In this document: piece by piece, positions 1,939-36,670 of the stretch
Numbering within the stretch: position 1 is the first letter of the stretch
Layout: every line of letters begins with the position of its first letter
Made by a program: the position numbers and the translations under genes
NCBI GenBank assembly: GCA_949290515.1
Contig: CASERZ010000010.1
Coordinates: forward strand, 22,153 to 86,152
Source of the DNA: an uncultured Christensenella sp.
Lineage (GTDB): Bacteria; Bacillota; Clostridia; Christensenellales; UBA3700
Length of the DNA stretch: 64,000 nucleotides
Direction: 5' to 3'
The notes under the pieces: generated by a model
What the model was told of the DNA's origin: nothing
Database searches by the model: none
Seen by the model: the letters and a program-made list of their open reading frames with translations, nothing else

Positions 1939-1974
1939 AGACGCCTCCTTTTAATATTTTATATAATATGTTTT

Positions 1975-2544
1975 TTATTCGTTTTTATACGGTTTTTCCC
2001 CGTAATTATTCAATAACCCTTTGAATACGTCGCTAAGCATACGGTTGACGTCCTCTTGCTCGAATTGCGCCGTATCGGTGGCTGTCATTGTGGCAATACC
2101 GTGCGCAAATAACCACATCTCACGCATTACGATACGCGAGCATTCTTTGTCCATTACGCTCTGCGTATTGAGCGCATCGAGAATAAACGGCATTTGCTCT
2201 ATGGAAGAGAGTACGTCTCTTCCGTTATTGTCGCTCATAAACAAGGCTTTGAAGAGTTGCTTTTGCTCTTTTGCGAATCTTATATAGTTTATGCCTATTG
2301 CCTTGTAAGGATTTGCGCCCTCTGCTCCGCTTTTCAGACACTCTTCAAACATAGAATTCGCACGGGCAAGCACGACGCTCTTTATTTCTTCCATATTGGC
2401 ATACCACCAAAACAGCGGTTGAGTAGAACACGACAGCTCTTTTGCAAGATTTTTTGCACTTAGTGCGTCTATTCCGTCACGCCTTACGAGAGCAAACGCT
2501 CCGTCGGCTATCCTCTCTCTCGAAATCCTTGTTTTGGGCGGCAT
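1975..2544 (-). CDS. TetR/AcrR-family transcriptional regulator
   Basis: N-terminal HTH MPPKTRISRERI...G...LSAKNLAKELSCSTQPLF; 189 aa. Confidence 0.9.
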   Translation of the reverse strand: MPPKTRISRERIADGAFALVRRDGIDALSAKNLAKELSCSTQPLFWWYANMEEIKSVVLARANSMFEECLKSGAEGANPYKAIGINYIRFAKEQKQLFKALFMSDNNGRDVLSSIEQMPFILDALNTQSVMDKECSRIVMREMWLFAHGIATMTATDTAQFEQEDVNRMLSDVFKGLLNNYGEKPYKNE

Positions 2545-19884: not shown

Positions 19885-21837
19885 TTAACGCTCTGCCCGC
19901 TCAATCAGACATTCGAAAGGACGTAGATTCAGCTTGCCGTACTTGACGTTTGTATCATTATGATTGATTATAAATCTTATACTGTCCTTGCCTTCGCCTC
20001 TCTCTACGACTTCTACGCCGACGGGAGAATCGACAGTCTTTATTTGCGCCGACGCGAGAATATCTTTTACGAGCAAGGACAAAAGCCCGTTGTCGAGCGA
20101 GGTACCGATATACCATACTTTTCCTTTGTCGCAGGAATTTTTGAGTACTGCCGAGCAATCGCTGTAAAACTCGTCGCCGTAACGGAAAAGCGATTGTGCC
20201 TTATCCGCCACGAGCATATCTCTGAAAACTCCCGCGCGTCCGCTTTTGCCTTGATATTCTCCCTGTCCTTCGAGCACGAAACCGTCCTCGTCCTCCACGC
20301 TTTCGCATTCGCGCACATAGCCGCCTATCAAATCGTCAAGGTCTACGGGAATGACTTTGCCTAACGTCAGATTGTTGTTTACATCCTTGACAGACGTGCG
20401 GTATGTCATAATAACATTGCCGCCGTCATTGACGTATTCTTTAATCCTCTTTCTCAACTTATCGTCGCAAACTGTGAGCGCGGGGATTATCAGCAATTTA
20501 TATTTTTGCCACTCCCTTTCGGCGGGTATAATGTCGACGGGGACATTATAATCGAAAAACGCCTTATAGAGTTTTTTCATTTCCTTTTGATTGTCATAGC
20601 TTATACTCTGCGGTTGCAACCTCATTGAAGCTAACGAATCGAAAGAGTAAATCATTGCGCATTCGCTCTTGAAAGGCGTAGCGAGAATTTCTCCGTATCC
20701 TCTAATTTCCTTGAAGAAGGACTGCGCTTCGTAAAATTTTCTTCTCGGCACGTTGTCGCAGTCGATTATGCCGTAACAAAACTGCTCCGCGCCTTTCGCC
20801 CCCTCTCTGTACCTGAAGTAAAGCAAACCGTCCGCGCCTCGCGCCACACTCTCATAGCTCCACATCTTTGCCTGATTGGGACGGGGCAAAAAGCCGTTGA
20901 CATTGTGTCCCTGCGCACCCATTATGGCTTCGGTGATAATTATGTTTTCGCCTTTGAGACCGCGCGCATAATCAAGACCGAAAGCTATTTCGTGAGGAGG
21001 CAACGGACGCATTTGGCCGCCCCATACGGGATAGTTGTTGTAAGCGACTTTGTCAATGTATTTTGCCGTATCTGAATAATCCACGCTCTTGTCAAGCCCC
21101 CCGCCCGGAAAATCGTGCAAAACTACCGCGTCGGGAATTACGCTCTTTATTATATCCGCCTGTACTTTAAGAAACTCGACGATATTCTGACTGCAAAATC
21201 TCTCGTAGTCCAGTCTTAAAGACGGATTGTGCGTAGTTATCGTATTGTAAGGCAAAGGCACTTCGTCAAAAGAATTGTATTCCTGACTCCAGAATGCCGT
21301 ACCGTAAGCCTCATTGAGCACGTCGGTATTGCCGTATTTGTTTGCCAGATATGCGTCAAACTTGTTTTTGCACTTGTCGCACCAGCACACGTCGCTACCC
21401 TCGTGTCCCAACTCGTTGTCTATCTGCCACGCGATTACGTTTGCTTCGTTTTTGTAATGCTCGGCAAGTGCACGCACTATCTTTTTGCAATATTCCACAT
21501 AAATCTCGCTGCTGAAACAATAGGTATGCCTGCCGCCGAAAACACGCTTTCTTCCGTATTCGTCCGTTTGAATGATATCGGGGTGCTTATGGATAAGCCA
21601 CGCGGGAGGGGTAGCCGTAGGAGTACCGATGATTACTTTGAGCTCCCTTGCCTTTGCCTTGGCAATAATGTCGTCAAAATACGAAAAATCGTATTCGCCC
21701 TCTCGCTTTTCCATTCTGTGCCACGAAAACTCGCCTATTCTTATGACGTTGCACCCCAGCTCGCATATACGGTCAAGGTCGCCGTCCGTCATCAAACCGT
21801 CCCATTGTTCGGGATAATAGTCCACACCCAAAAGCAT
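19885..21837 (-). CDS. Beta-galactosidase, GH42
   Basis: GVDYYPEQW, RIGEFSW..EKREG.YDF, GTPTATPPAW, WQIDNE (acid/base), GAEQF. Confidence 0.95.
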   Translation of the reverse strand: MLLGVDYYPEQWDGLMTDGDLDRICELGCNVIRIGEFSWHRMEKREGEYDFSYFDDIIAKAKARELKVIIGTPTATPPAWLIHKHPDIIQTDEYGRKRVFGGRHTYCFSSEIYVEYCKKIVRALAEHYKNEANVIAWQIDNELGHEGSDVCWCDKCKNKFDAYLANKYGNTDVLNEAYGTAFWSQEYNSFDEVPLPYNTITTHNPSLRLDYERFCSQNIVEFLKVQADIIKSVIPDAVVLHDFPGGGLDKSVDYSDTAKYIDKVAYNNYPVWGGQMRPLPPHEIAFGLDYARGLKGENIIITEAIMGAQGHNVNGFLPRPNQAKMWSYESVARGADGLLYFRYREGAKGAEQFCYGIIDCDNVPRRKFYEAQSFFKEIRGYGEILATPFKSECAMIYSFDSLASMRLQPQSISYDNQKEMKKLYKAFFDYNVPVDIIPAEREWQKYKLLIIPALTVCDDKLRKRIKEYVNDGGNVIMTYRTSVKDVNNNLTLGKVIPVDLDDLIGGYVRECESVEDEDGFVLEGQGEYQGKSGRAGVFRDMLVADKAQSLFRYGDEFYSDCSAVLKNSCDKGKVWYIGTSLDNGLLSLLVKDILASAQIKTVDSPVGVEVVERGEGKDSIRFIINHNDTNVKYGKLNLRPFECLIERAER

Positions 21838-21878
21838 AAAAGCCTCCTTAAATATCAAACTTGTCGCATATTGCGATA

Positions 21879-23396
21879 TTAAAGTTTACCGTCGCTTGCG
21901 TCAGGCTTGTCTTGCCCGTCATCCTGCACAGTCTTGTCTGTAAGTCCTTCGTATGCGTCGTGCTCTGCCTGCGTATTGACAGGCTCGTTACCCGCATATA
22001 CTGCCTCAGCCAAACCGTCCTCCAAAGAAGCGGTTTCGGTTTCCTTACGCTCTTTCAGCTCGTCCATAATCTGCTTGTAATATTTATCCTTAAGTTTGTA
22101 TTTCTTAAGATAAATAATAAGACACAAGAGCGAGAATATCGCGGGAATTATAATCATAATTATTCTCATACCTGCTACGGTTTTGCTGCTCTGCGTTTCG
22201 TTGGCTACAAAGCCTATCAGCTTCAGCCCTACGCCTGATATCAACGCACTGAAAGCTCCCGCGAATTTTACGACGAATGTCTGCGTGGAAAAGAGTACGC
22301 TTTCGTTTCGCGATTTGAATTTGTATTCTCCGTAGTCCACTACTTCCGAGAGAATTACGGTTACTATTACAAGCATAAATCCTATTCCTATATTTACTAT
22401 CGCACTGCAAAAACCTACGAATACCGCGCTCGTAGGAGCAACGTAACCCGCCAAAAACAGCAGCGCAAAACCTACTACGGGGAAAAGGCACGCAAGGATA
22501 AACAATACCGTCTTGTTTACCTTTATCCTCAAAATAGGGAAAAGGAAAAGCGCGCCTATCTGCGCTATACCCGCAACAGCCGTGTATACGGAAAACAAAC
22601 TTTCCTTTACGCCGCAAACGTACTCAAAATAATAGAGCGCGAAACTGTTGGACAACTGGTAAGCCAGATTGAAAAACAATGCTATCATCAACACTACCAA
22701 TACCTGGTCGTTTTTGAACAATACCTTGAGCATCTTCTTTATACTCGTCTTCTCTCCCGTACCTGCCGTAGCGATTACCCTTTCTTTTGTGTTGAATACG
22801 GTTATCGTCGAGGTGATGACGAATATCACGCTTATGATGAAAGCAAACCACGCAAAACCCTTTATCTGGTCGCCTCCGCCTAAGCCCTTGACTATATAAA
22901 GTCCGCCAGAGCCTACTATCAACCACGCGAAACTCGCAAACAGTCTGGGTATCGCGCTTATCTGGTTACGCTCGTTTTCGTTGTTGGTCAAAGCGGGCAC
23001 CATACTCCAGTAAGGTATATCCATAAGCGTATAGGTCATACCCCACAGTACATACATAAATCCTATATATACCGCATACTTGACGCCCGATATGTTGACG
23101 TTGAGATAAAGCAGTATAAGGACTACTGCGTTGAGCAACGTACCTATCATTATCCAGGGTCTGAATTTACCCCAACGCGTGCGGGTGTTGTCCACTATAT
23201 ACCCCATCGCAGTATCGTTGACAGCGTCCCATATTCTCGCAACCGCAAAAAGTACGCCTACAAAAGCCGCGTCTACCAGCCTGACGTCAGTCAGGTACTT
23301 CATAAGAAAAGTCGATACTATGGCATACACCAAGTCCTTACCGAATGCTCCCAGTCCGAAACTCAGCTTTGAACGCCACGAAAGTTTTTCGTCCAT
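21879..23396 (-). CDS. melB: Melibiose/galactoside:cation symporter (GPH family)
   Basis: SFGLGAFGKD, RIWDAVND, TRTRWGKFRPW, YTLMDIPYWSMVP; about 12 TM. Confidence 0.85.
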   Translation of the reverse strand: MDEKLSWRSKLSFGLGAFGKDLVYAIVSTFLMKYLTDVRLVDAAFVGVLFAVARIWDAVNDTAMGYIVDNTRTRWGKFRPWIMIGTLLNAVVLILLYLNVNISGVKYAVYIGFMYVLWGMTYTLMDIPYWSMVPALTNNENERNQISAIPRLFASFAWLIVGSGGLYIVKGLGGGDQIKGFAWFAFIISVIFVITSTITVFNTKERVIATAGTGEKTSIKKMLKVLFKNDQVLVVLMIALFFNLAYQLSNSFALYYFEYVCGVKESLFSVYTAVAGIAQIGALFLFPILRIKVNKTVLFILACLFPVVGFALLFLAGYVAPTSAVFVGFCSAIVNIGIGFMLVIVTVILSEVVDYGEYKFKSRNESVLFSTQTFVVKFAGAFSALISGVGLKLIGFVANETQSSKTVAGMRIIMIIIPAIFSLLCLIIYLKKYKLKDKYYKQIMDELKERKETETASLEDGLAEAVYAGNEPVNTQAEHDAYEGLTDKTVQDDGQDKPDASDGKL

Positions 23397-23496
23397 AATT
23401 CTCTCCTTATTTTTTATTACTCCCTTATTATTAGCAAAAAAACCTTTTCTAAAATACGCATTACGGCATTTTTAAAATAGCTGTACTTTTGCTAAG

Positions 23497-23508
23497 CTAA
23501 CCGGTTTT
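23497..23508. promoter_or_regulatory. Possible LacI-family operator upstream of melB
   Basis: TAACCGGTTT palindrome with central CG near the putative melB promoter; a second candidate AAAACGATTTT lies at about 23633-23643. Confidence 0.35.
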
Positions 23509-23734
23509 ATTATCATTCCTTTAAACGTCAATATAAATACCGAATTTTTAAAATTTAGTAAAAAAGAAAAAAATTTGACCGTCAAAACATAATATAATCT
23601 TAAAAGCTTTAGTTTTATATTTGCTTTAAGGTAAAACGATTTTGTATAATTTGTCTAAAGTTTATCTACAATTGGAAAAAACATATTGTCTTTTACTGTT
23701 TTATACTATATAATTAGAGCGTAGGAGATTTTTT

Positions 23735-25018
23735 ATGCAAAATTCAATGTTCGATAAAGAATGGTTCAGACTGGACAACGCCGCTAAGATTTACCCCGCG
23801 GCGAGAAACAACCGTTGGAACAACGTCTTCAGAATGTCCGTCGTACTCAAAGAAGAGGTAAAACCCGACGTACTCCAGCAGGCTCTGGAAGACGTCATCG
23901 ACCGTTTCCCCTCGTTCAGAGTTACTCTTAAAAAAGGCTTTTTCTGGTACTATTTCCAGTTTGTTACGTCCAAGCCCAAAATTCAGGAGGAAAAGTCTTT
24001 CCCCTGCACTATGATGCGCCTTAAAGGCAAGGGCTACATATTCAGAGTGCTCTATCACTCTCACCGCATATCCGTGGAAGTCTTCCACTCCATCACTGAC
24101 GGTACGGGTAATATCACTTTTCTCAAAACACTCGTCGCTAGATACTGCGAGCTCTGCGGTGCCAAAATCGCCGACTACGGCGACGTGCTTCACTATGACG
24201 ACGACCCTACTCTCGAAGAAGTCGAAGATTCATTTGCAAGATACGTCGATAAGAGCAAGGGAACTATAGGCAGAAGCGAACCTACCGCTTATCAAATTAA
24301 AGGTCAGAGAGAAAAAAGAGGCGTTCTTAACGTTACGCAAGGCAGTATGCCTTTCGAACAGCTCCACAAAGTCGCTAAGTCTTACGGCTGTACTATCAAT
24401 ACTTATCTCTCCAGCGTAATCGCTTACGTTTACCTAAGACGTCAGCTGTACGAAAATAAGTCAAAGAAAAAACCCGTAAAAATTCAGATTCCTATCAACC
24501 TCAGAAAAATTTTCCCTTCTGTTACGATGAGAAACTTCGCGGGCTTCTTCAATACCTCACTCTCACCCGAAGAGCAAACCTTCGAGGAAGTATGCAAAGA
24601 GATGAACAGACAAATCAAAGACTTCGTGACTCCAGAGTACTGCCAGAAGTTTATCAACTCCAACGTATCTCTGGAACAAGTCCCCCTCATCAGAATCGCA
24701 CCCAGATTTTTGAAGACTTTCTTTATGAATATGTCCTTCAGAGCAGTAGGCGAAAGACTTATGTCGATTTGCCTCTCCAACGTAGGTAACGTCGTTATGC
24801 CCAAAGAACTTGACGATTATATCGACCGCTTCGAATTCCTTATCGGTCCTCAAAAGTTTATCGACCACGCGATGACTGCTATATCTTTCAACGGTACTAC
24901 GCTCGTATCCTTTACGCGTACCATCAAAAATTCTACGGTCGAAAGAGACTTTTTCAAAGTGCTGGTCGAACATGGTATCGACGTCACTATCAATACTAAC
25001 AGGGGGTATGACGTATGA
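23735..25018 (+). CDS. Alcohol acetyltransferase / condensation-domain CoA-dependent acyltransferase
   Basis: WFRLDNAAKIYP N-terminus, HSITDG (HxxxDG) catalytic motif, IPINLR, LSNVG. Confidence 0.8.
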   Translation: MQNSMFDKEWFRLDNAAKIYPAARNNRWNNVFRMSVVLKEEVKPDVLQQALEDVIDRFPSFRVTLKKGFFWYYFQFVTSKPKIQEEKSFPCTMMRLKGKGYIFRVLYHSHRISVEVFHSITDGTGNITFLKTLVARYCELCGAKIADYGDVLHYDDDPTLEEVEDSFARYVDKSKGTIGRSEPTAYQIKGQREKRGVLNVTQGSMPFEQLHKVAKSYGCTINTYLSSVIAYVYLRRQLYENKSKKKPVKIQIPINLRKIFPSVTMRNFAGFFNTSLSPEEQTFEEVCKEMNRQIKDFVTPEYCQKFINSNVSLEQVPLIRIAPRFLKTFFMNMSFRAVGERLMSICLSNVGNVVMPKELDDYIDRFEFLIGPQKFIDHAMTAISFNGTTLVSFTRTIKNSTVERDFFKVLVEHGIDVTINTNRGYDV

Positions 25019-25686
25019 AACATCAGTGTCGTAAATGCGGAGTGTACGTAGAAGACGGACTCAAAAACTGTCCCCTCTGCGGTGCGTTTATCTCCGACGA
25101 AGAAGGAACAAATATCTATGAGTTTCCCAAAATAAAACTCAAAACTGCCAGATGGCTGTTTTTCAAAATAGTGCTGTTTATATCAATCTTTACGGTTGCG
25201 ACGGTGCTTGCTATCGACCTCGCGGTAAATAAAACCGTTTCGTGGTCGCTCCACGTAGTATTCCCTATCTTCCTCTTGTGGATTACGGTAGGCCGCTCGA
25301 TTATCAAAGGCTTTAACGCAAGAAAACACCTCGCGTGGGACTTTGCAGGACTAATCGCGCTATTCTTCTATATCGAGCACTTTACCAACACCGCAAGCCG
25401 GCACTGGGCATTTACCCTTGCCGCTCCTATCGCGGTGCTCGTATGGGCGACGGTACTCGAAATTCTCTATTTCGCACACCGTTCGAGCAAGGACGACTAT
25501 CAGGTCGCGCTGACGAGACTCTTCTTTATCTCGGCAATCTGCATAGGCATCTCTTTCCTCTGGCTCAAAACCTGTAACTGGGGCTGGTACGTATGTACCG
25601 CAAGAGGTCTTGTAGACGTCATCGCAATGTCGCTCTTTGACAGAGAATCCTATGCCAACACCCTAAGACAAAAACTGCATCTTTGA
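25015..25686 (+). CDS. Zinc-ribbon membrane protein (DUF6320-like)
   Basis: CRKC...CPLC followed by about 6 TM helices; ATGA overlap with the upstream acyltransferase. Confidence 0.7.
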   Translation: MKHQCRKCGVYVEDGLKNCPLCGAFISDEEGTNIYEFPKIKLKTARWLFFKIVLFISIFTVATVLAIDLAVNKTVSWSLHVVFPIFLLWITVGRSIIKGFNARKHLAWDFAGLIALFFYIEHFTNTASRHWAFTLAAPIAVLVWATVLEILYFAHRSSKDDYQVALTRLFFISAICIGISFLWLKTCNWGWYVCTARGLVDVIAMSLFDRESYANTLRQKLHL

Positions 25687-25696
25687 TAAATAATCC

Positions 25697-25720
25697 CAAA
25701 AGCTCCCTCGGGAGCTTTTG
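25697..25720 (+). terminator. Terminator overlapping the terminal CRISPR repeat remnant
   Basis: CAAAAGCTCC-ctcg-GGAGCTTTTG. Confidence 0.75.
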
Positions 25721-25739
25721 TTGTTTGGTATGGTATAAT
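25715..25739 (+). CRISPR. Degenerate terminal repeat (3' 25 nt of the 36-nt repeat)
   Basis: CTTTTGTTGTTTGGTATGGTATAAT is identical to repeat positions 12-36. Confidence 0.9.
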
Positions 25740-25889
25740 CTCGGCAGAATCGTCTTCCATTTCTTCTTTCGCGTCATCAAAATGCGCCCAGACTTTTTCC
25801 TGCTCGTCTTCTGGAAGACTGTCTATCTCGTTGAGCAGTTCGTCCAAGCGTTCAATGACGCTCTTCTTTTTTTTTCCAAAATTTGCCAT
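25740..25889 (-). pseudogene. 5' fragment of an acidic phage scaffold-like gene, truncated by the repeat
   Basis: AGGAGG RBS, then MANFGKKKK...EEMEDDSAE, then reads into repeat-encoded IIPYQTTK. Confidence 0.55.
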
Positions 25890-25914
25890 ATTTGCCTCCT
25901 GTTTTAATTTTTGT

Positions 25915-25985
25915 GTATAAAAAAAGACGGCTTAACCGTCCTTATTTATCGTTGTATAAAAAAAGCAACCTGTCAAGGTTGCCTT
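25915..25985 (-). terminator. Two tandem rho-independent terminators inside the insert
   Basis: Minus strand GCAACC-ttgaca-GGTTGC followed by T-run+ATAC, and GACGG-ttaag-CCGTC followed by T-run+ATAC. Confidence 0.75.
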
Positions 25986-26003
25986 AGCGTTTAGTATTTC
26001 TTA

Positions 26004-26273
26004 TCAATACAGTATAGTGTCAAATATATTTTTCGGCTTTACCGGCGGGAAGTATCTGTCATAGTCCTCGTCCGTAAGCGGTGTGCCGCGCTCTATCGCT
26101 TCCTCACACATTTTTTTGAAGTCCGGATTGTCTAACCCATACGGCATAGTTATAGGTATCATCGGACAATGCCCGAATTTTTCCTCGTATCTGTCGTAAT
26201 AAGCCGTATAATCTTCTTGTGGTTGCGCCTTGACACTTTTTTTAAGCTTCTCGATATTTTCTTTTTTCATCAT
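26004..26273 (-). CDS. Intact 89-aa hypothetical protein (putative immunity protein by position)
   Basis: AGGAG RBS, ATGA overlap with the upstream ORF stop, followed by terminators. Confidence 0.65.
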   Translation of the reverse strand: MMKKENIEKLKKSVKAQPQEDYTAYYDRYEEKFGHCPMIPITMPYGLDNPDFKKMCEEAIERGTPLTDEDYDRYFPPVKPKNIFDTILY

Positions 26274-26584
26274 TCTACTCTCCTTGCTTTTATTTCACCC
26301 GATTTAAGTTTACCGTATATCTCCTCAAAAGTCAATACCGTATTAGGAATATATTCTTTCAAGATTGCGTAAGATTCGGGACTGGTAGCTTTTGCGCTTG
26401 CAATTTCTGCGAAAGCTTCCGCGGCTCTTGCGTCTCCGAATTTATCCCAATATCCTCTTGCGTGTCCGGCGCAGACAAACTCTTTTCCTCTTGTCAAGCC
26501 ATTTAATATGTCTCCCATATCTTTCCATTTTTTTGTTGCTCTTTTTCGTCCTTCTTCGCCGCTTTCATTGACAAACGCCTCTCT
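26270..26584 (-). pseudogene. 3' fragment of a phage minor capsid/MuF-like protein C-terminal (peptidase-like toxin) domain
   Basis: Frame is open right up to the repeat boundary (REAFVNESGEEGRKRATKKWKDMGDILNGLTRGK...GHARGYW...EAFAEIASA...LKEYIP). The GH..xYW/EAFAE pattern is typical of such domains. Confidence 0.55.
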
Positions 26585-28096
26585 GTTTTAGTTCCCTTTT
26601 GTTGTTTGGTATGGTATAATAAAGCAATAATAAAACCGCCGTCAGCAAACGTTTTAGTTCCCTTTTGTTGTTTGGTATGGTATAATTAAAGCGGGATTAA
26701 GTCCAGCGGCTTTAAGGTTTTAGTTCCCTTTTGTTGTTTGGTATGGTATAATTTAGCAAGTTTAGTAATGTCAATTTTATCTGTTTTAGTTCCCTTTTGT
26801 TGTTTGGTATGGTATAATTTATAATATAATATTTTTATTGAAATTTGCGTTTTAGTTCCCTTTTGTTGTTTGGTATGGTATAATGCTGATAAGCGGTATA
26901 ATGCAAGGAGAGAGGTTTTAGTTCCCTTTTGTTGTTTGGTATGGTATAATCGCAACTTCGAGCGCGACAAAAAGACTAATGTTTTAGTTCCCTTTTGTTG
27001 TTTGGTATGGTATAATGTACGAGGTATAATCCTCAAGATTTTCACAGTTTTAGTTCCCTTTTGTTGTTTGGTATGGTATAATCGAGCCTAATTCAATCGT
27101 GTCTCTCAAGAGGTTTTAGTTCCCTTTTGTTGTTTGGTATGGTATAATCTGGATGGCATAATAAATGACATCCATTTTGTTTTAGTTCCCTTTTGTTGTT
27201 TGGTATGGTATAATAAATGCTGATATTCCTTTTATATGCGTTGAGTTTTAGTTCCCTTTTGTTGTTTGGTATGGTATAATTATAGCATAATTAAAAATTA
27301 AATCTTTACCGTTTTAGTTCCCTTTTGTTGTTTGGTATGGTATAATTAAAATAGTTATTGAGCAAAGTTATCCTAATGTTTTAGTTCCCTTTTGTTGTTT
27401 GGTATGGTATAATCTGACCATCCTCGATAGCAACTAACTTACCGTTTTAGTTCCCTTTTGTTGTTTGGTATGGTATAATCCACAGTCTCTGGCTCATTAC
27501 ATGGGTATTGTTTTAGTTCCCTTTTGTTGTTTGGTATGGTATAATTTTTAAACCTGGAAAATCAGTACCAGGAGCGTTTTAGTTCCCTTTTGTTGTTTGG
27601 TATGGTATAATTAAAATTATCATATTTAAAATACATTATTGTTTTAGTTCCCTTTTGTTGTTTGGTATGGTATACCCTTTTGTTGTTTGGTATGGTATAA
27701 TATAAATATTTAAGTGGTATTATGGTGGTGGGTTTTAGTTCCCTTTTGTTGTTTGGTATGGTATAATCTCCCATAACTTGTTTCCACTTAGGATACGGTT
27801 TTAGTTCCCTTTTGTTGTTTGGTATGGTATAATCAGGCTATTCGCGTAATGCCGACTTATAGGTTTTAGTTCCCTTTTGTTGTTTGGTATGGTATAATAA
27901 AAAATGAAAGTAGGTTTGTATGTAATTTGTTTTAGTTCCCTTTTGTTGTTTGGTATGGTATAATACTCTCCATTGTAAGAATAGTTTTGCATTAGTTTTA
28001 GTTCCCTTTTGTTGTTTGGTATGGTATAATCATTTCAAGCTTTGGATCAACTCCGTATTCGTTTTAGTTCCCTTTTGTTGTTTGGTATGGTATAAT
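26585..28096 (+). CRISPR. Type II-C CRISPR array: 23 repeats of 36 nt (GTTTTAGTTCCCTTTTGTTGTTTGGTATGGTATAAT), 22 spacers of 29-31 nt
   Basis: Repeats counted directly from 26585 to 28061; the one at 27641-27701 is partly duplicated. Orientation comes from the GTTTTAG 5' end and tracrRNA complementarity. Confidence 0.98.
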
Positions 28097-28113
28097 AGAG
28101 GAACAAAAAGAAT

Positions 28114-28153
28114 AAGGATATATGTCAAATAAACGGCATATATCCTTGTTTTT
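28114..28153. terminator. Bidirectional terminator-like hairpin between array and cas2 (leader side)
   Basis: AAGGATATATGTC-aaataaac-GGCATATATCCTT with T-runs on both strands. Confidence 0.65.
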
Positions 28154-28226
28154 ACAGTTTAAATGGAAAACGATTTTTTTTAAAAAGTGACCAAAGTTTT
28201 ATTTTTTTAATTGCAAAAACCGTTTT

Positions 28227-28547
28227 TTAGAAAAACGACAATTGATAATATTCTGCTTTTTGTTCTTCGCATTTGACTTTACCACGCACTATATACATAT
28301 TCGCATATTGTTTTTCCGTAACCACCATTACTCTTACCGAGCCTTCCTCAGGCGCATAGTTGGCAAGTCTTCGGCAATGCATCTGAGCATTGTCGAAGTT
28401 ATTGCAAAGCCTTCCGTACACGGAAAACTGTATCATATAATACCCGTCGTCTATCATAAACTTTCTGAAGTCCGTAGCAATCTTTCGTTGTGCTTTTGTC
28501 ATAACGGGCAAATCAAAGAATACTATTATCCTCATAAACTTACTCAT
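28227..28547 (-). CDS. cas2: CRISPR-associated endoribonuclease Cas2
   Basis: MRIIVFFDLPV, FRKF..DDGY.MIQFSVY.R, VTEKQY. Confidence 0.97.
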   Translation of the reverse strand: MSKFMRIIVFFDLPVMTKAQRKIATDFRKFMIDDGYYMIQFSVYGRLCNNFDNAQMHCRRLANYAPEEGSVRVMVVTEKQYANMYIVRGKVKCEEQKAEYYQLSFF

Positions 28548-29437
28548 AGATATTCGTGCGACTTAATCTCTTGCATAATAGGCAATTTAAGCTTGTTGAC
28601 GCCTTGCTCTAAAGAGGTCATATAACTGTCTATGCATATCTCAATACTCCTCGGCAAAACCTGATTGGCATTGTCAATCGACACGTCCGTGTTATTAAGA
28701 TTAAAAAGCAACTTCTTCGCATTGCTATCGAGAGTGCTGAGCGAAAATTTACTAACCGTCCTGTCTACGATAGCGCGGTAAGGCTCTATAAAATCGTCGG
28801 CAAGGTTAAAAGCGTTTAACTCGCTTGCGTGGTGAATTCCCAAAAATGCGCTAAATCCGCGTGCCGCTAAAGTGCGGGCAATAAGTCCTCGCACAATCGC
28901 ATAGCCGTAATTCAGACAAGCATTGGTACCATTGTCGCTGCGCCTGTCAAAATCTTTTCCGAAAAGCTCCTTAAAATAAATACGTGCCGCCGTTGCTTCT
29001 AAATTTGACGTATCGTCGCTAAGCACCGTTTGAGATAATGCAAACAGTTTTTCCGCGCCCTCTCTTTTTCCGTTTAATCTGAGACATTCAGCTTGATTTG
29101 CTATTTTGCGGGATATAATACTCTGCCACATTTGCTTGACAAGAGGTTTCTTGACTTGAGTCTGCAATCTGAATACTCTCAGATGCGCAAAGTATTGTCC
29201 GTAGGGCATCAATATCGCCGTCGGTATATGCTTTTGGTCGCATACAAATACCGCGACGCCCTCTTTAGCAAGCCTTGACAAAAGGCTTATACTGACAGAG
29301 CATTGCAAGTTGTCCACCATAACGCAGTTTATATCCTCAATGGCAAATCGCGCCTCTTTTTCGCCTGAGAGTATAAGCCCGTTGCTATCAAGCGAGAGTT
29401 TGCAATACGAACCCACAAAAATATTTATGTAGCCCAT
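28544..29437 (-). CDS. cas1: Type II CRISPR-associated integrase Cas1
   Basis: EATAARIYF, NACLNYGYAIVR, GIHH, AFNLADDFIEPYR. Confidence 0.97.
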   Translation of the reverse strand: MGYINIFVGSYCKLSLDSNGLILSGEKEARFAIEDINCVMVDNLQCSVSISLLSRLAKEGVAVFVCDQKHIPTAILMPYGQYFAHLRVFRLQTQVKKPLVKQMWQSIISRKIANQAECLRLNGKREGAEKLFALSQTVLSDDTSNLEATAARIYFKELFGKDFDRRSDNGTNACLNYGYAIVRGLIARTLAARGFSAFLGIHHASELNAFNLADDFIEPYRAIVDRTVSKFSLSTLDSNAKKLLFNLNNTDVSIDNANQVLPRSIEICIDSYMTSLEQGVNKLKLPIMQEIKSHEYL

Positions 29438-32400
29438 TATCTTTTCTTTTTAAACTCAAGCGGCAATCTCTTTTCGCTCTTTACTTCGCTGTAATTGCCC
29501 AATACGTCTACCGTGTATTTTTTGAATTGCAACAAAGTTTTGATACCAACTCGTCCTTTATGGCTATTTATATTATTAGTAATTTTTATTCGACTTCCAT
29601 CTATGTCAAACGAATTAAAATATAATAATTCTTGATTGCATACTATTTCTTTGTCCAAATTACTTTTGCTACAATCTCTTTCTTTTGTTAATTTAATACC
29701 TTCTCGATTTTCAACTAAAACCAAATCATCTTTATGAAGTGTAAATAGAAATTGATAGCTATCGTCTAATTGCGACCAACCATTCTTACTTTTTGATGGT
29801 ATTCTATTAGGAAGTTCACCTTTATACAAATCAGCAACGTAAATAGGTATTGCGTAGTATTGATTGTCTTTTGTAAATATATCCACGCGTATCATAGCCT
29901 CGTTGCCTACAAGCGCATTTGTCTTGTCAATAAGCATACCGCTTGTGCTGGTGTCTTTGATTTTTACGCTTCTAACAAGAGGACCTTGCCTTCCGTCTTT
30001 TGTAGGCTTATAAAAGGGCTCTTTAAACGCTCTTTTTCCGTCATAATCATATTTTTCAAGCCTTTCAATAATTGCATTATAAAGCCTTGTATCCGACTCT
30101 TTGTTAAAATACCTCGCCATCTTTTCTTTATTTAAATCACTTAAATCAGTTTTTAAAACAACAAATCCTTTGTCGATATGTTTTGCGCTCTTATAAGTTG
30201 CCGCGTGCATAGTGCCGATTGCCTTACGTCTAGGCATACGGCTGACAAAGACGGGTTTGACGGCTTCTATTTGCTCTTGTGTGTAACCTATGGTCTGCAA
30301 AGCGTCTACCATAGAATCCTTGTCGGGCAAGCATCTTATTCTAAGCTCCTCGACAAAATCTTTGTAAGGCTGCTTTGCGCCCCTCTTAAGCAAAATTGCA
30401 ACTTCCTTATAACCGAATACTTCACCCGTCTCTTCGTCGGTATATTCGCCGCCACCCAACTTGACGTTTTCTTTCATCTTATAAAATTCTGTAAGGTTTT
30501 TGATTACTCCGCTATCCATAACCGCGATAATAGCCGCGTCGACAGCGTGATGCAAATCCCCGTCCTCTCTCACTTTGTTTATGCCCCACACGCGTCTTAA
30601 AGTAGCAGTCATCTTACCCTTGACGGCATATACCGTACGCTTTACGTTTTTAAGCGGCATAAAGTATAAATAATCTTGCAAAAGATTCTGCACAAATCTC
30701 GAAAGATAGGACGTATCGTTGAGCGCTCTGTTTTTCCACTCCGTTTCGTCAATCTTTTCTTTTAGCAGTTTTTCTCTTTTAGCGGGATTATCCTTATACA
30801 AAGCATATACAAGCGCTCTATACTCCTTTTCTCGTCCTTTACGTATCTGATATGCCATAGCCGTATCGTTACGCTTGTCTTGGTTTTCTTTGGTCAAGAC
30901 AAGCACCTTATTGCTAAAGCTGTCATCAAAGCTCTTGCTGTATGGCAGTATATGGTCTACTTGAGCGTAGTCTTCGTCTTTGAAAAGTCTGTCTGCGTCA
31001 ATCACTTTGTCACTATATGGACATTTGCCGCCTTGCTCCTCATAGAGCTTGTATTTGATAAACTCGCTTGATTTGGGGTCTCTGCCGAAAGTATCTTTGA
31101 ACGCAGCTCTCAATTTATTATTGCTTTCTTCGCGCTCTTTGTTGTCCTTTTCTATTTTCTTGCGCTCCTCAAAAGTCTTGGACATTTCTCTCGCCAGCTC
31201 GATATTAATGGCTACCGGTGAGCCGTATTCGCGTATAAGTGCATTTATGACCTTTACAGCCTGACTCACCGAGCGTTTTACGACAGGCGAAGTGATTTCG
31301 TCTATTCTCGCCCTCATATCTTCGCCCTGCAAAAGCACCGACTTTTCGCCGTTTTTGTCTGCACTGATATCCGCTTTTTCCATAGCTTCGCTGTATTTAA
31401 AACCTTGCTCGAGATAAGGCTCAATCGCTTTAAGCGCACTTAAAGAAAGATTGGACGTCTTTGTGCAATCGAGTTGCAAAATATTCAGCACTTCTTCTTC
31501 ACCGAGAGAATTAAGCAAAGAATTGTCGGATATCTGCTCTCTGATACGCTCTTCGCTCTTGTTGAATAAAAGTATTTTTGCTACTTCGTCGATAATATCC
31601 CTGTTACGATGCTCTTCTGACAACGCTTTTGCTATTGTCGTACTGTTTTTCATAGTTACTAAAACCTTGTCTTCGGCTTTCTTTATAATCTCTTCAAGCG
31701 TAATTTCTTTTTCTTCTTCCCCTTTCTTTTTGGGCGCCTGATAGGATATGTTGAATATATATTCGGCTTCTAGCGCGAGCAGCTTTCTTACGTCCTTATA
31801 TTTAATTTCCGTTTTTTTGTTCAACAGCTCTCTGACCGACGCTCTTTCTTCGTTGCTCAAAAATCTCTCTTCGCCGTTGCCCTGAATTTTAAGATTGTTG
31901 ATTTTTTGCAAAGCGTTGGAATAATCTACTGTATAGCTGTACTTGGGAGCGCGGAATTCCCCGTTGAACATACCTACAGCAAAGTTACTTGAATAAGGAC
32001 TACCTTTTCCGGGTCCTTCGTCAAAGCTTCTCTGACGAGTAAATATCTCTATGAATTTTTCTTCTGTATTTTCATCGGCAAGAATATTTCCCAGCTCACG
32101 CTGTTTTGCAAACAATATCTTTGCTTCTTCTATAAGTCTGTCTCTAGACACCGTTTTAGAATAGTCTCCGCCTTTATTGCGCGTACAACAAAGCTTATTG
32201 CCGTTAGGGTCAGTACTCGCGTAATGCTTATACAACATCTCACCTACGGTACGATAACTGTTGTCTTGCATTATTATATCGTTCTGCTTGGTAGCAGCAA
32301 GCAATTTTCCGTCCTCTTTGGAAGACGCGTTTTTGCGGTTGCTCTTAAATCCTCTATGCTTTGCTATAGAATAAAGTACACGGGCAAAATCACGCTCGTT

Positions 32401-32709
32401 TATTTTCTCGTCCAGCGCGGCGCATCTCAATTCATTTACGTCACGCTCGCCTTCTTTTCTTGACATATCTTTTTGTCCTAAAAGATTGCGAATGTCCTCA
32501 AGACGTAATACTTTACGTCTTATTCTTCTTCGAAGTCCTCTTGCCTTTCTTCTGCCTTCGGCAAGACTTTTGCCATCCTCCGCCTCTGCCTTATCAAAAG
32601 TACGCGAATGAAGACTTAAAATTCTCTTAGCTTGTCCATTCTCGTCAATCTCAATAGCAGCCGCGCCGCAAGAGGCAATACCTAAATCAAGTCCGATTTT
32701 GTAAAACAT
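29437..32709 (-). CDS. cas9: Type II-C Cas9 (1090 aa)
   Basis: RuvC-I GLDLGIAS, Arg-rich bridge helix, RuvC-II IELARE, HNH QVDHILPYS..FDDSFSNKVL, RuvC-III HHAVDA; no csn2 or cas4 in the locus. Confidence 0.98.
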   Translation of the reverse strand: MFYKIGLDLGIASCGAAAIEIDENGQAKRILSLHSRTFDKAEAEDGKSLAEGRRKARGLRRRIRRKVLRLEDIRNLLGQKDMSRKEGERDVNELRCAALDEKINERDFARVLYSIAKHRGFKSNRKNASSKEDGKLLAATKQNDIIMQDNSYRTVGEMLYKHYASTDPNGNKLCCTRNKGGDYSKTVSRDRLIEEAKILFAKQRELGNILADENTEEKFIEIFTRQRSFDEGPGKGSPYSSNFAVGMFNGEFRAPKYSYTVDYSNALQKINNLKIQGNGEERFLSNEERASVRELLNKKTEIKYKDVRKLLALEAEYIFNISYQAPKKKGEEEKEITLEEIIKKAEDKVLVTMKNSTTIAKALSEEHRNRDIIDEVAKILLFNKSEERIREQISDNSLLNSLGEEEVLNILQLDCTKTSNLSLSALKAIEPYLEQGFKYSEAMEKADISADKNGEKSVLLQGEDMRARIDEITSPVVKRSVSQAVKVINALIREYGSPVAINIELAREMSKTFEERKKIEKDNKEREESNNKLRAAFKDTFGRDPKSSEFIKYKLYEEQGGKCPYSDKVIDADRLFKDEDYAQVDHILPYSKSFDDSFSNKVLVLTKENQDKRNDTAMAYQIRKGREKEYRALVYALYKDNPAKREKLLKEKIDETEWKNRALNDTSYLSRFVQNLLQDYLYFMPLKNVKRTVYAVKGKMTATLRRVWGINKVREDGDLHHAVDAAIIAVMDSGVIKNLTEFYKMKENVKLGGGEYTDEETGEVFGYKEVAILLKRGAKQPYKDFVEELRIRCLPDKDSMVDALQTIGYTQEQIEAVKPVFVSRMPRRKAIGTMHAATYKSAKHIDKGFVVLKTDLSDLNKEKMARYFNKESDTRLYNAIIERLEKYDYDGKRAFKEPFYKPTKDGRQGPLVRSVKIKDTSTSGMLIDKTNALVGNEAMIRVDIFTKDNQYYAIPIYVADLYKGELPNRIPSKSKNGWSQLDDSYQFLFTLHKDDLVLVENREGIKLTKERDCSKSNLDKEIVCNQELLYFNSFDIDGSRIKITNNINSHKGRVGIKTLLQFKKYTVDVLGNYSEVKSEKRLPLEFKKKR

Positions 32710-32750
32710 ATCAATCCCTCTCTTATATATAATTTTTTATAGTTTTGTTT

Positions 32751-32860
32751 TTAAAAAGATGTCCCGAGGTTATCGGGACAGAGCTTTTCGGGATAAAACC
32801 CTTATTTTGGTAACCTGTTTGTTGTTTGGTATGGTATATTTGTTCAGTTACCTTAGCTAT
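32751..32860 (-). ncRNA. tracrRNA
   Basis: Anti-repeat at 32804-32838 (21-nt perfect core TTTGTTGTTTGGTATGGTATA), nexus UAAGGGUUUUAUCCCG, terminal hairpin UGUCCCGA-uaacc-UCGGGACA plus U-tract, TTGACT -35 at 32884-32889. The 5' end is approximate. Confidence 0.88.
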
Positions 32861-33111
32861 AGATTATCACATAACTTTTGTTTAGTCAATATCACTTTTG
32901 GAAAAATTTGTATAATTTTTTGCAAATTTCGTCGATTTAAGAAGTTTCTATGCTATATGTCCAAAATATTGTACATTAATGTTGAATTTTTATTGTTTTT
33001 CGAAGAAAATATCCTAAATTGCTTATCAAGATTTAGAGCCTCCCCGTAGGAAGGCTCTTTGTGAATTATGTGCGCCAGCCGTGAGGCGGACGTCTTACTT
33101 TGACGAATTTA

Positions 33112-34122
33112 TTAGCAAATCTCGCTGAGTTTTACGGGTCTGCCCTCTTGCAAAGACTTCTTTGCGGCTACGCCTATTACGACTGCCTGCAAGCCGTCCT
33201 CGATGCTGACAGGTACGGGCTTATCGTTGACGATACAGTCAATAAACTGACTGACTTCGTTGACGTATGCCTGCATATATCTCTCAAGGAAGAAGAGTAA
33301 AGGCTTTTCTGCCGTTACGCCGTCGGCGTTGGATATTACGGCGTTGGAGGCGCTGTCGTTGGCAATTGCCACCTGACCGAGTTCGCCGAAAGCTTCCGCT
33401 CTTTGGTCGTAGCCGTAGCTTGCACGTCTGCAGTTGTCGATAACTGCAAGTGCGCCGCTCTTGAGACGCATAGTTATCACTGCGGTGTCTATGTCGCCCG
33501 CCTCGCCGATTGCCTTATCTACCATTACTCCGCCCATAGCGAATACGCTCTCTACCTCTTCGCCTGACAAGTATCTTACCATATCGAAATCGTGAATGGT
33601 CATATCGAGGAATATTCCTCCGCTGACTTTAATATAGGATACGGGAGGAGCTGCGGGGTCTCTGGAGCAAATCTTAAGTACGTTGAGCTTGCCGATTTTA
33701 CCGGCTTCTACGGCGTCTCTTACCGCCTTGAAGTTGTGGTCGAAACGACGGTTGAAACCTACCTGATATTTTACCTTGGAATTTTCAAGAGCCTTCTTGA
33801 CTTCGAGAATCTTGTCTATATCGTGGTCTACGGGCTTTTCGCAGAATACGTGCTTGCCCGCCTTGATAGCCTCGATGGATATAGGCGCGTGAGTGTCCGT
33901 AGAAGAACAAATCAGGACAGCGTCGATAGACTTGTCATTAAGTATGTCGTGATAGTCCTTGCTTGTCTTTTCCACGCCCATACCCTTGAGCCACTTTTCG
34001 GTGTCTTCGTTCATAAAGGGGTCAGCTACGGACTTTACCGTCGCGCCCTTGACGTAACACATAATTGATTCGCAGTGTACCTTGCCGATACGGCCTGCGC
34101 CGATGATACCTATGTTTATCAT
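33112..34122 (-). CDS. iolG: myo-Inositol 2-dehydrogenase
   Basis: GIIGAGRIG, CEKP, GFNRRFD, SGGIFLDMTIHDFD, YGYDQR. Confidence 0.92.
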   Translation of the reverse strand: MINIGIIGAGRIGKVHCESIMCYVKGATVKSVADPFMNEDTEKWLKGMGVEKTSKDYHDILNDKSIDAVLICSSTDTHAPISIEAIKAGKHVFCEKPVDHDIDKILEVKKALENSKVKYQVGFNRRFDHNFKAVRDAVEAGKIGKLNVLKICSRDPAAPPVSYIKVSGGIFLDMTIHDFDMVRYLSGEEVESVFAMGGVMVDKAIGEAGDIDTAVITMRLKSGALAVIDNCRRASYGYDQRAEAFGELGQVAIANDSASNAVISNADGVTAEKPLLFFLERYMQAYVNEVSQFIDCIVNDKPVPVSIEDGLQAVVIGVAAKKSLQEGRPVKLSEIC

Positions 34123-34228
34123 AATTTACCTCTTATTATACAGTTTTGATTAAATATATTTTGCAGTTTGCTTTGCGCACCGATTGTCGGTACGCAAAGA
34201 TGTGATTTTTTGCTGTTGTCGCTAAGTC

Positions 34229-35737
34229 TTAAATCGTACCGTCCCAAGTGGAAACCTTGGTAGACTTAGCTTCGTGCTCGTCAAACCAGTGCGTGGTAAC
34301 AGTCTTGCTGTCGGTATAGAACTTGAAGCTGTCTCTTCCCAAACAGTGCAAATCGCCGAAGAAGGAATTCTTGTGACCGGTAAAGGAGAATACGCCTACA
34401 GGTACGGGAATACCTACGTTTACGCCTACCATACCGCCGTCGGTGTTGCGTACGAATTCTCTTGCATAATAGCCGTTTTGCGTGTAGATTACCGAGCCGT
34501 TTGCAAAAGGATTTGCGTTCATAACGGCAAGACCTTCTTCAAAAGTCTTGACTCTCTTGATACAGAGTACGGGTCCGAATATCTCTCTCGTGCCTACGGT
34601 CATTTCGCTTGTTACGTTGTCGAGAATCGTAGGTCCGAGATAGAAGCCCTTTTCATAACCCTTTACAACGGTATTTCTGCCGTCGAGTACGAGTTTTGCC
34701 CCCTCGTCGATACCTTTCTGTATCCAGTCGCTTACGCTCTTCTTGTGCTCTGCACTGTATACGGGACCGAGCTTGGTCGTCTTGTCATATGCAGGACCTA
34801 CCTTGATGCCCTTAGCAAGTTCTACGAGTTTAGCTACGAGTTTGTCAGCTATACTCTCCTGTACTACCGCTACGGGAAGAGCCATACATCTCTCGCCCGC
34901 ACAGCCGTAAGTTGCGTTGATAATGCCTGCGGCGGTTCTGTCGAGCGCGGCGTCTTCGAGTACGAGTGCGTGGTTTTTAGCTTCGCACAAACACTGTACT
35001 CTCTTTCCGTACTTGGCTGCCGTTTCGTAAATATATCTTCCTACGGTCGTGGAGCCTACGAAAGTAATACCAACTACCTTGGGATTTGCGATAAGTTCCT
35101 GAGTATCGTTACGGTCGCAGCTTACGATATTGAGTACGCCGTCGGGAAGTCCCGCTTCTCTGTACAACTCTGCAATTCTCAAAGACGTCATAGGCGTTGC
35201 GCCCGCTACCTTGAGTACTATTGCGTTGCCGCAAGCAATACATACGGGAGCCATCCAGCCCATAGGAATCATTGCGGGGAAGTTGAAAGGCGCGATGCCT
35301 ACGAATACGCCCATAGACTCGCGGTAAAGTACCGTATCGTAGCCCGTAGACGCGTCCATAAGGCTTTCACCCTGCAAGAGAGAAGGCATTGAAAGCGCAA
35401 GCTCGGTACCCTCCTTTGCCTTGAGAATATCGCCCTTGCTCTCCTCCCAGTTCTTGCCGTGCTCGGTAGCACAAAGTTCTGTGAGTTCGTCCATATGCTC
35501 GACAAGCAAATCTCTCAATTTGTAAAGCACCTGTACTCTCTTGACAACGGGTACTCTCGACCATTTCTTGTAAGCCTCTTGCGCATTGTCGATAACCTTG
35601 CTTACTTCAGCCGTGGTACATCTGGGCATCTGCGCGATTTGTTCGCCCGTAGAAGGATTGAATACGGGATAATATTTATCCGTAGCGGATTGTACGAATT
35701 GGTTATTCGTAAAATATCCTAGTGTCTTTATTGCCAT
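34229..35737 (-). CDS. iolA: CoA-acylating (methyl)malonate-semialdehyde dehydrogenase
   Basis: PFNFPAMIP, FVGST, EAKNH, GCAGERCMA, EIFGPV, GMVGVNVGIPVP; iol context. Confidence 0.9.
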   Translation of the reverse strand: MAIKTLGYFTNNQFVQSATDKYYPVFNPSTGEQIAQMPRCTTAEVSKVIDNAQEAYKKWSRVPVVKRVQVLYKLRDLLVEHMDELTELCATEHGKNWEESKGDILKAKEGTELALSMPSLLQGESLMDASTGYDTVLYRESMGVFVGIAPFNFPAMIPMGWMAPVCIACGNAIVLKVAGATPMTSLRIAELYREAGLPDGVLNIVSCDRNDTQELIANPKVVGITFVGSTTVGRYIYETAAKYGKRVQCLCEAKNHALVLEDAALDRTAAGIINATYGCAGERCMALPVAVVQESIADKLVAKLVELAKGIKVGPAYDKTTKLGPVYSAEHKKSVSDWIQKGIDEGAKLVLDGRNTVVKGYEKGFYLGPTILDNVTSEMTVGTREIFGPVLCIKRVKTFEEGLAVMNANPFANGSVIYTQNGYYAREFVRNTDGGMVGVNVGIPVPVGVFSFTGHKNSFFGDLHCLGRDSFKFYTDSKTVTTHWFDEHEAKSTKVSTWDGTI

Positions 35738-35776
35738 AATAAATTCTCCTTTATCTGTATATGTGTTGTAATAATT

Positions 35777-36670
35777 TTATATTTTTGCCGTTTTTCTTAT
35801 ATAATCTCTAGCTTTGAGAGCGTATTCCAAAGGATTAGCCTTAGCGGGGTCTTGCTCTGCCTCGACAATCATCCAGCCCTCATAGCCGCTCTTGTCAAGC
35901 TCGTCGAATAAGGGAGCAAAGTCTATGCAGCCGTCGCCCGGTACGGTAAACGCGCCCTCTCTCACGCCTTGCAAGAAAGAGAGTTTTTCTTTCTTTACTT
36001 TCTCTACTACCTCGGGACGAATGTCCTTGAGATGCACGTGCGCTATACGCTTGGCGTACTTCTTGAGTACGGCAAGATAATCCTGTCCGCAATAAGCGAG
36101 GTGTCCCGTGTCGTACAAAAGCGCGAATTTGTCAGGGGCGGTCATATCCATCATTCTGTCGATTTCCTCGGCAGTCTGCACTACCGTGCCCATATGGTGA
36201 TGATATACGAGCCTTATGCCCATAGAATTGGCTATATCGCCCAGTCTGTTCATTCCCTTGGCAAACTTATCCCATTCCGCGTCGTTCATCACGTATTTTG
36301 CGTCGAATACGGGGGTATTCATCTGTCCCTGTATGCTAAAGCTCTGCTCGGACGCGCCTATTCTTTTTGCGCCCATTGCTTTCAAAAATTCACACTGCGC
36401 GATAAAGTCCTTTTCGACTTTTTCCATAGGCTCGGTGAGAACGAAAGACGAAAACCACTGATTTGCTATCTGAAGTCCTCTCATATCGAGCGCTTTCTTA
36501 AGCACTGCGGTATCCTTGGGATACTTGTTGCCTACTTCGCAACCCTCGAAGCCTGCAAGTGCCATTTCGCTCACGCATTGTTCAAAGGTGTTTTCACTGC
36601 CCAAATCGGGCATATCGTCGTTGGTCCACGCTATAGGCGCGATACCCAGTTTGATTTTGTTCTTGTCCAT
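35777..36670 (-). CDS. iolE: myo-Inosose-2 dehydratase
   Basis: GIAPIAWTNDDMP, YHHHMGT, DTGH, HVHLKD, VEAEQDP. Confidence 0.95.
   Translation of the reverse strand: MDKNKIKLGIAPIAWTNDDMPDLGSENTFEQCVSEMALAGFEGCEVGNKYPKDTAVLKKALDMRGLQIANQWFSSFVLTEPMEKVEKDFIAQCEFLKAMGAKRIGASEQSFSIQGQMNTPVFDAKYVMNDAEWDKFAKGMNRLGDIANSMGIRLVYHHHMGTVVQTAEEIDRMMDMTAPDKFALLYDTGHLAYCGQDYLAVLKKYAKRIAHVHLKDIRPEVVEKVKKEKLSFLQGVREGAFTVPGDGCIDFAPLFDELDKSGYEGWMIVEAEQDPAKANPLEYALKARDYIRKTAKI

Follow-up and report, generated by a model that had tools for sequence, protein, structure and literature searches.

How does a fragment of a phage genome come to lie between two repeats of a CRISPR array, in a place normally held by a spacer of about 30 bp? 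The question is raised by a type II-C locus of an uncultured Christensenella sp. (GenBank assembly GCA_949290515.1, contig CASERZ010000010.1), from which we analysed a stretch of 64,000 nucleotides, called the window here and numbered from its first letter. A 25-nt repeat remnant ends at 25739, the first full repeat of the array starts at 26585, and the 845 bp between them (25740-26584), where ∼30 bp are expected, form a phage-derived insert in the oldest spacer slot. These distances had been given in a preliminary description of the DNA, and its coordinates all hold. We find that the insert is an internal chunk of the head-gene module of a temperate tailed phage and that it is a real part of the chromosome and not an assembly error. 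For its origin we tentatively propose homologous recombination between phage DNA and two matching spacers of the array, a reading to which we assign a probability of about 45%.

The insert is present in a single copy in the 1.72-Mb host genome (G000) and holds three open reading frames (ORFs) on the minus strand, the outer two of which are cut at the repeat edges, as had been noticed before. At the right end lie the last 104 codons of a head-module protein (ORF C, 26270-26584), cut exactly at the repeat border; the minus-strand frame stays open to 26587, and the upstream stop is found inside the repeat. Full-length relatives of ORF C, 347-369 aa in length and 91-98% identical, cover the whole query in P0023-P0026 (18 matches among 173 candidates), and in the alignment they carry an HExxH motif upstream of the cut point. 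A weak match to phrog_4728 (E = 1.1e-4) is the sole basis of the label "head morphogenesis" for this protein, and when its full-length homologues P0024 and P0026 were searched, PHROG gave nothing at E ≤ 0.01 and no Pfam family passed the cut-off. At the left end, an acidic, scaffold-like gene of the phage is represented by its first 50 codons (25740-25889), whose frame continues through the repeat to a stop at 25650, so that the host copy is a chimeric ORF of 79 aa that reads into the repeat-encoded ...IIPYQTTK. This gene has 13 longer homologues of 99-201 aa (among 119 candidates), which are 82-96% identical over the 50 aa; the name "scaffold" is suggested by its composition and position, with no family match.

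Between the two truncated genes lies ORF B (26004-26273), an intact phage ORF of 89 aa with 22 homologues that are 56-94% identical over 52-100% of the query. It is preceded by a Shine-Dalgarno-like sequence, and no promoter is evident. ORF B matched no Pfam or PHROG family, and its structural model, with a mean confidence score (pLDDT) of 62, retrieved nothing from the PDB at E ≤ 0.001 in a Foldseek search; the best Atlas match, scored 0.84, is a lead only. Small ORFs adjoin head genes in some phages. An anti-CRISPR role for ORF B was considered and found to be without supporting evidence. The preliminary description had called the insert gene-carrying, which is true of ORF B and not of the other two, truncated ORFs. 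It was also right in seeing no mobile-element features: the insert proteins belong to no transposase or integrase family in Pfam, and the insert has no terminal inverted repeats and no target duplication apart from the CRISPR repeats themselves, the marks by which an insertion sequence (IS) or transposon would be known. Among 40 other genomes compared, the insert is absent save for two short, weak matches; one of these, a 33-nt match in genome G006 to 25748-25780, lies within an ordinary gene with no repeats nearby and was set aside as chance.

The phage origin that had been suspected is borne out by these protein homologues and by a related prophage, L054, found in a scan of GTDB genomes in a metagenome-assembled genome of an uncultured Christensenella sp. 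(105 pattern matches, of which three were confirmed: L054, which is close, and two distant ones at 32-33% identity). L054 reads, in order, integrase, HNH endonuclease, large terminase, portal, minor head protein, a 368-aa homologue of ORF C, ORF B, the scaffold-like gene and, after it, a capsid-sized ORF of 368 aa; five of the 10 L054 proteins tested had no PHROG match. The insert aligns to L054 10760-11747 at 84-93% identity, with homology that sets in at 25740, immediately behind the truncated repeat, and stops at 26584, immediately ahead of the full repeat, save for a further 2 nt (GT) in common by chance. We further compared the insert with chicken-gut sequencing runs (X1, X2, X7 and others), for which the evidence consists of k-mer contigs, not raw reads. 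Contigs of free phages in X1 and X7 continue past both ends of the insert, where their flanks are the same as those of L054 and not repeat-like, and the scaffold-like ORF and the 368-aa gene run uninterrupted in the phage through the points at which the host copies are cut. Because these flanks do not resemble the repeat, the phage has no repeats around the captured segment, and recombination through phage-borne repeats is ruled out on the evidence of X1, X7 and L054.

Of the public collections searched for the source phage, the GTDB scan alone gave a relative, L054. In INPHARED, neither the DNA of the insert nor ORF B (by tblastn) found a match; in IMG/VR, the first 30 nt of the insert had no exact counterpart, and ORF B and ORF C were without relatives. 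Joint Genome Institute metagenomes likewise lacked relatives of ORF C, none of the 595 pattern matches being confirmed, and a search there for the truncated repeat together with its flank found no copy. Within the captured region, a terminator scan found two terminator-like hairpins on the minus strand between ORF B and the scaffold-like gene (25923-25985). A segment of ∼169 nt in the same interval is polymorphic among the phages, being present in the abundant X1 phage (joint at 25905/25913) and in L054 (11414-11581) and absent from the X7 phage contig and from both host inserts. Very probably, then, the DNA in the slot is phage head-module DNA shared by at least two strains, and its phage family circulates in the same chicken-gut communities as the host.

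That the insert belongs to the chromosome is clear from an independent assembly. As the possible source sample, X1 was left out of the independent evidence, whereas X2 comes from another study; X6, with low depth, and X7, with phage only, are uninformative on the insert in hosts, as are runs with small word shares. In X2, a single 905-bp contig covers 25710-26613. It starts with GGGAG, which is specific to the host flank, passes through the truncated repeat and the entire insert, and includes 29 nt of the full repeat. Mismatches to the window number 31 (an insert ∼4% diverged), not including a 76-nt patch that is equal in length but far more diverged. The depth of this contig, 19.1, equals that of the host flank contigs (23.4, 19.1 and 19.4, differing from the window by 0.6-3.4%), and no phage-type continuation appeared among the loose ends listed for X2.

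The preliminary description had offered, as one of three origins, a chimera in which an ordinary array was mis-joined during assembly via two spacers matching a co-sequenced phage. X1 does contain a related free phage at 128-170× next to a host at 29×, and its 23.9-kb host contig stops 20 nt into the insert, as a mis-join there might leave it. The same run, however, holds pieces identical to the insert at a depth of 33-42, close to the 29 of the host contig, and its abundant phage is a variant 5-8% diverged from the insert. With both junctions spanned at host depth in X2, the chimera is contradicted and we regard it as very remote; a few percent are kept for an artefact because the data are k-mer contigs and not reads. 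Given that two strains ∼3% apart share the junctions, the insert must be as old as their split or have moved between them by recombination.

The repeat remnant to the left of the insert is not itself an oddity, as it had been taken to be. It is a 5'-truncated repeat on the plus strand (25715-25739) that comprises the last 25 of 36 nt, keeps the extended -10-like element TGGTATAAT at 25731-25739 and lacks the 11 nt that pair with the trans-activating CRISPR RNA (tracrRNA). Upstream of the array is a DUF6320 gene (25015-25686; PF19845, E = 1.6e-22), whose terminator hairpin (25697-25720, plus strand; 10 pairs, terminator-like on both strands) overlaps the start of the truncated repeat with its 3' arm, in place of the missing 11 nt. 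The same arrangement of terminator and truncated repeat is found in two sister species carrying comparable arrays, G011 (flank 96% identical over 942 nt) and G021 (81%), the repeat being slightly more decayed in G021. In both, a normal 30-nt spacer directly follows the truncated repeat, so the 845-bp gap in the host is not a matter of chance.

Four more distant arrays with related repeats (G035, G073, G117 and G323) likewise have a degenerate repeat that keeps its -10 end, 30 nt upstream of the first full repeat. A first repeat with a degenerate 5' part and a -10-like end is thus seen in six of six related arrays, and a hairpin precedes it in four of the six (G011, G021, G035 and G073). Within this repeat family the old end has a conserved build, with a degenerate first repeat 30 nt before the first full one. 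This build agrees with what is described of II-C arrays in the sections of Feussner et al. 2025 (PMC12080349) that we consulted, according to which acquisition takes place at the last repeat, the first is at once the oldest and the "extra" one, 60% of first repeats are mutated, mostly in their first 15 nt, and upstream terminators are common. By this analogy, 25715-25739 is the normal old end of a II-C array with its usual mutated extra repeat, and it follows that the insert occupies the oldest slot and not the acquisition end.

We propose that the insert arose by homologous recombination between phage DNA and two spacers of the array. Two spacers would have matched the phage in the same orientation, ∼785 bp apart. 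A double crossover between the phage and both spacers could then have taken place; or a circular phage genome could have integrated at one spacer, after which the second protospacer and its spacer would have recombined, deleting the rest. Phage recombinases may have driven these exchanges, with Cas9 cuts in integrated protospacers as a possible stimulus, and by either route everything between the two spacers would be replaced by the phage segment. Both junctions would fall exactly at repeat-spacer borders because the spacers themselves served as the crossover homology, and the phage homology is indeed collinear and ends exactly at both borders, as in a product of such recombination. Recombination of targeting spacers with phage genomes is established, and promiscuous phage recombinases have been blamed for it (Varble 2019, as cited in bioRxiv 10.1101/2020.10.09.333658). 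The integrase of L054 and the temperate nature of the phage family also count in favour of recombination.

Spacers of the sister species lend further weight. The spacers of the G000, G011 and G021 arrays were compared with 23 genomes of the genus, those of G000 also with 401 genomes of the order and with INPHARED, and all of them with their own genomes and with L054-L056. Spacer 15 of G011 (22/30 nt) and spacer 4 of G021 (24/30 nt) match the minor-head gene of L054, next to the captured segment. The two overlapping sites lie within ∼50 nt of each other (L054 9421-9470), and spacer 16 of G011, aligned by hand, seems to cover part of them on the other strand, which gives the impression of an acquisition hot spot shared across species. 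A 17-nt degenerate pattern made from two overlapping spacers returned 35 chance matches in IMG/VR and was discarded.

Several points weigh against recombination as the origin. The 65 spacers of G000, G011 and G021 include none that is identical to either terminal 30 nt of the insert, and the 22 G000 spacers agree with the 21-kb stretch of L054 no better than chance would have it (20/30 for the best of the 30-nt spacers). The spacer-target searches gave no consistent protospacer-adjacent motif (PAM). The two usable protospacer flanks read N4CAA, but they are not independent and lie in a diverged relative, and the flanks of the putative end protospacers, CGCGTCAT and GTCCGCAC, the latter being the phage flank after the right end, are unlike N4CAA. 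Two crossovers on homologies of 30 bp would be rare, and Cas1-Cas2 chemistry would give the same exact borders. Nor can the models be told apart by the location of the insert at the old end, which evidently turns over, given that the three species have no spacers in common.

The last two points bear on the alternative that Cas1-Cas2 integrated an over-long, 845-bp phage prespacer at the cas-proximal end and that later acquisitions pushed it towards the old end, where the older units would finally have been lost as the repeat preceding the insert recombined with the truncated one. Junctions exactly at repeat borders are what integrase chemistry gives, cas1, cas2 and cas9 are intact at the locus, and the old end evidently turns over while the truncated repeat stays, given that G000, G011 and G021 share none of their 65 listed spacers. 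The array also contains a second aberrant unit, the 25-nt repeat duplication at 27641-27701, and PAM-less acquisition has been described in Neisseria lacking Cas9 (PMC12477760). Set against this is the length of the insert, which at 845 nt falls outside that of ordinary spacers, all 64 other units of the three arrays being 29-31 nt. We know of no in vivo integration of such long prespacers, and a literature search found no report of one near 845 bp. Nor can the prespacer have been integrated in situ, because its left-hand repeat, the ancient truncated one, does not duplicate the right-hand repeat, so that steps beyond integration are needed. We consider this origin unlikely, if a serious contender, and favour recombination over it because of the documented precedent, the temperate phage, the sister spacers that match the phage family and the want of any known long-prespacer integration. 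Of the three origins first put forward, the over-long prespacer and the double recombination both stand; the chimera has fallen.

Some other event, such as illegitimate or microhomology-mediated capture at a break in the array, or a single spacer-protospacer crossover followed by an unrelated deletion, seems to us improbable. In its favour are the 2-nt GT overlap at the right junction, the temperate nature of the phage family (L054 has an integrase) and the known entry of prophages into arrays (bioRxiv 10.1101/2020.10.09.333658). Illegitimate joins, however, would hardly place both junctions on repeat borders to the nucleotide. The prophages known to integrate into repeats, as described in that preprint, join inside the repeat via an attachment (att) core and carry their integrase, whereas the insert comes from the middle of a head module and has its junctions at the borders; prophage integration of the PhiAP1.1 type was accordingly rejected, there being no integrase in the insert.

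What the insert does at present is probably little, and we infer that it is mostly a relic. Judged from its sequence, the truncated repeat should promote, by way of its -10-like element, a transcript that begins near 25745 and is antisense to the phage genes, and if that transcript reaches 26585, pairing with the tracrRNA could give a CRISPR RNA (crRNA) guided by the last 20-24 nt of the insert. Terminator-like sites on the plus strand at 25847-25862 and 25926-25940 speak against this, as they may end the antisense transcript early. No spacer of the G000, G011 or G021 arrays matches the insert, so there is no self-targeting of it within the locus. The idea that the array acts as a gene-capture device, raised in the preliminary description, is a conjecture. 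A related notion, that the insert is a standing homology pad for continued exchange of DNA between array and phage, with the array as a site of recombination and gene capture, strikes us as a long shot. It starts from the finding that the junctions are identical in two diverged strains, yet the inserts are mosaic, with the 76-nt patch located where phage ORF B alleles differ. Were it true, phage-array recombination would run far above the level of a 30-nt spacer, and phage integration at the array or phage-borne transfer of CRISPR-cas might follow.

The remainder of the locus is that of a complete type II-C CRISPR-Cas9 system. On the minus strand are cas2 (28227-28547; PF09827, 1.2e-16), cas1 (28544-29437; PF01867, 1.5e-23) and cas9 (29437-32709), which encodes 1090 aa with HNH_4, RuvC_III and Cas9_RuvC domains and has Cas9 chains as its best PDB matches (E = 4e-182). 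The gene content is that of type II-C, cas9, cas1 and cas2 without csn2 or cas4, and no further ORF lies between cas2 (28227) and the array. Directly upstream of cas9 is a putative tracrRNA (32760-32850, minus strand), which comprises a stretch complementary to the array repeat (the anti-repeat) and, behind it, a hairpin and a T-run; the repeat-like match is kept in G011 and G021. A search of Rfam over 20000-36000, the putative tracrRNA region included, gave no match at the gathering score.

The array proper (26585-28096, plus strand) has 23 full repeats of 36 nt and 22 spacers of 29-31 nt. On the plus strand every repeat starts with GTTTTAG and ends with TGGTATAAT, an extended -10-like element on the strand opposite to cas9-cas1-cas2, from which it follows that the array is oriented against the cas operon. 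In the II-C systems of Neisseria and Campylobacter each repeat has its own promoter and crRNAs begin a few nt into the spacer (PMC12477760, PMC12080349), and by analogy each repeat here probably carries a promoter, with the array read towards the cas genes. The repeat at 27641-27701 is 61 nt long instead of 36, owing to a perfect internal tandem duplication of 25 nt, and is followed by a normal 30-nt spacer; slippage or an off-register integration/disintegration event are possible causes. The cas-proximal flank of the last repeat (28097-28160) contains a hairpin, is kept in G011 and G021 and, if II-C arrays as described in PMC12080349 are a guide, would be the acquisition or "leader" side.

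As to targets, the searches described above yielded, apart from the three diverged L054 matches, only a self-match of spacer 4 and partial matches of spacer 2. Spacer 4 (26819-26848) matches the host chromosome at G000:C1:196288-196315 over 28/28 nt, in an AT-rich intergenic region upstream of a gene, and because this chromosomal target is conserved in G011, G021 and G006, the spacer is either self-targeting or promoter-derived. The 3' 22-23 nt of spacer 2 (26687-26716) match a conserved site in the VP2/pilot-protein genes of gut Microviridae, which suggests that microviruses are among the targets of this host.

Spacers normally vary in length by no more than a base or two, and an array is read as a list of short tags. 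The insert is a natural exception with one intact ORF, and its stability in strains ∼3% apart implies that arrays can fix phage DNA on a kilobase scale. If the recombination route is correct, spacers double as crossover sites, and in one step several spacers would have been lost and phage genes gained. A practical consequence is that array-finding programs with an upper limit on spacer length would break up or shorten such arrays and lose their oldest unit.

Units of unusual length have been seen before. Kupczok et al. 2015 (PMC4524480) list units of at least 100 nt in arrays of E. coli, P. aeruginosa and S. thermophilus, long units as here, but most of these are reported to be transposon-like, whereas the present one is a fragment of phage structural genes without transposon features. 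A literature search, supplements aside, found no report of a phage gene fragment as a spacer. In another family of the order, a related II-C array (L062, G055:C7) has a unit of 667 nt (1736-2402, minus strand) between a perfect first and a mutated second repeat, with an IS200/IS605-type transposase gene ∼470 nt beyond the first repeat. That unit is single-copy except for a recurring element of 55 nt, and its ORFs have no PHROG match; it may or may not be the same phenomenon. The II-C extra repeats of Feussner et al. (PMC12080349) resemble ours in that the first repeat is damaged at its 5' side, a Rho-independent terminator lies before it and new spacers enter at the other end. They differ in that here a long unit follows the repeat, of which the sections consulted describe none.

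Phage DNA inside a type II array is also known from PhiAP1.1 in the II-A system of S. pyogenes (bioRxiv 10.1101/2020.10.09.333658). There, however, integration is site-specific and reversible, through an 8-bp att core in the repeat, and brings in a whole prophage with its integrase, whereas here an 845-bp fragment of a head module is found. In the staphylococci of Varble et al. 2019 (described in the same preprint), as in our proposal, the short homology of a spacer is the crossover site, and phage DNA is joined at spacer borders. The products in that case are phage or transducing genomes that carry CRISPR-cas; in the gut anaerobe studied here, with its II-C system, the outcome is reciprocal, a phage segment in the chromosome in place of spacers, and would, if the recombination route is correct, be the chromosomal counterpart of the phage-borne products in staphylococci. 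The insert, at this single locus, is thus a rare natural trace of DNA exchange between phage and array and, on the reading favoured here, a variant of the phage-array recombination already known.

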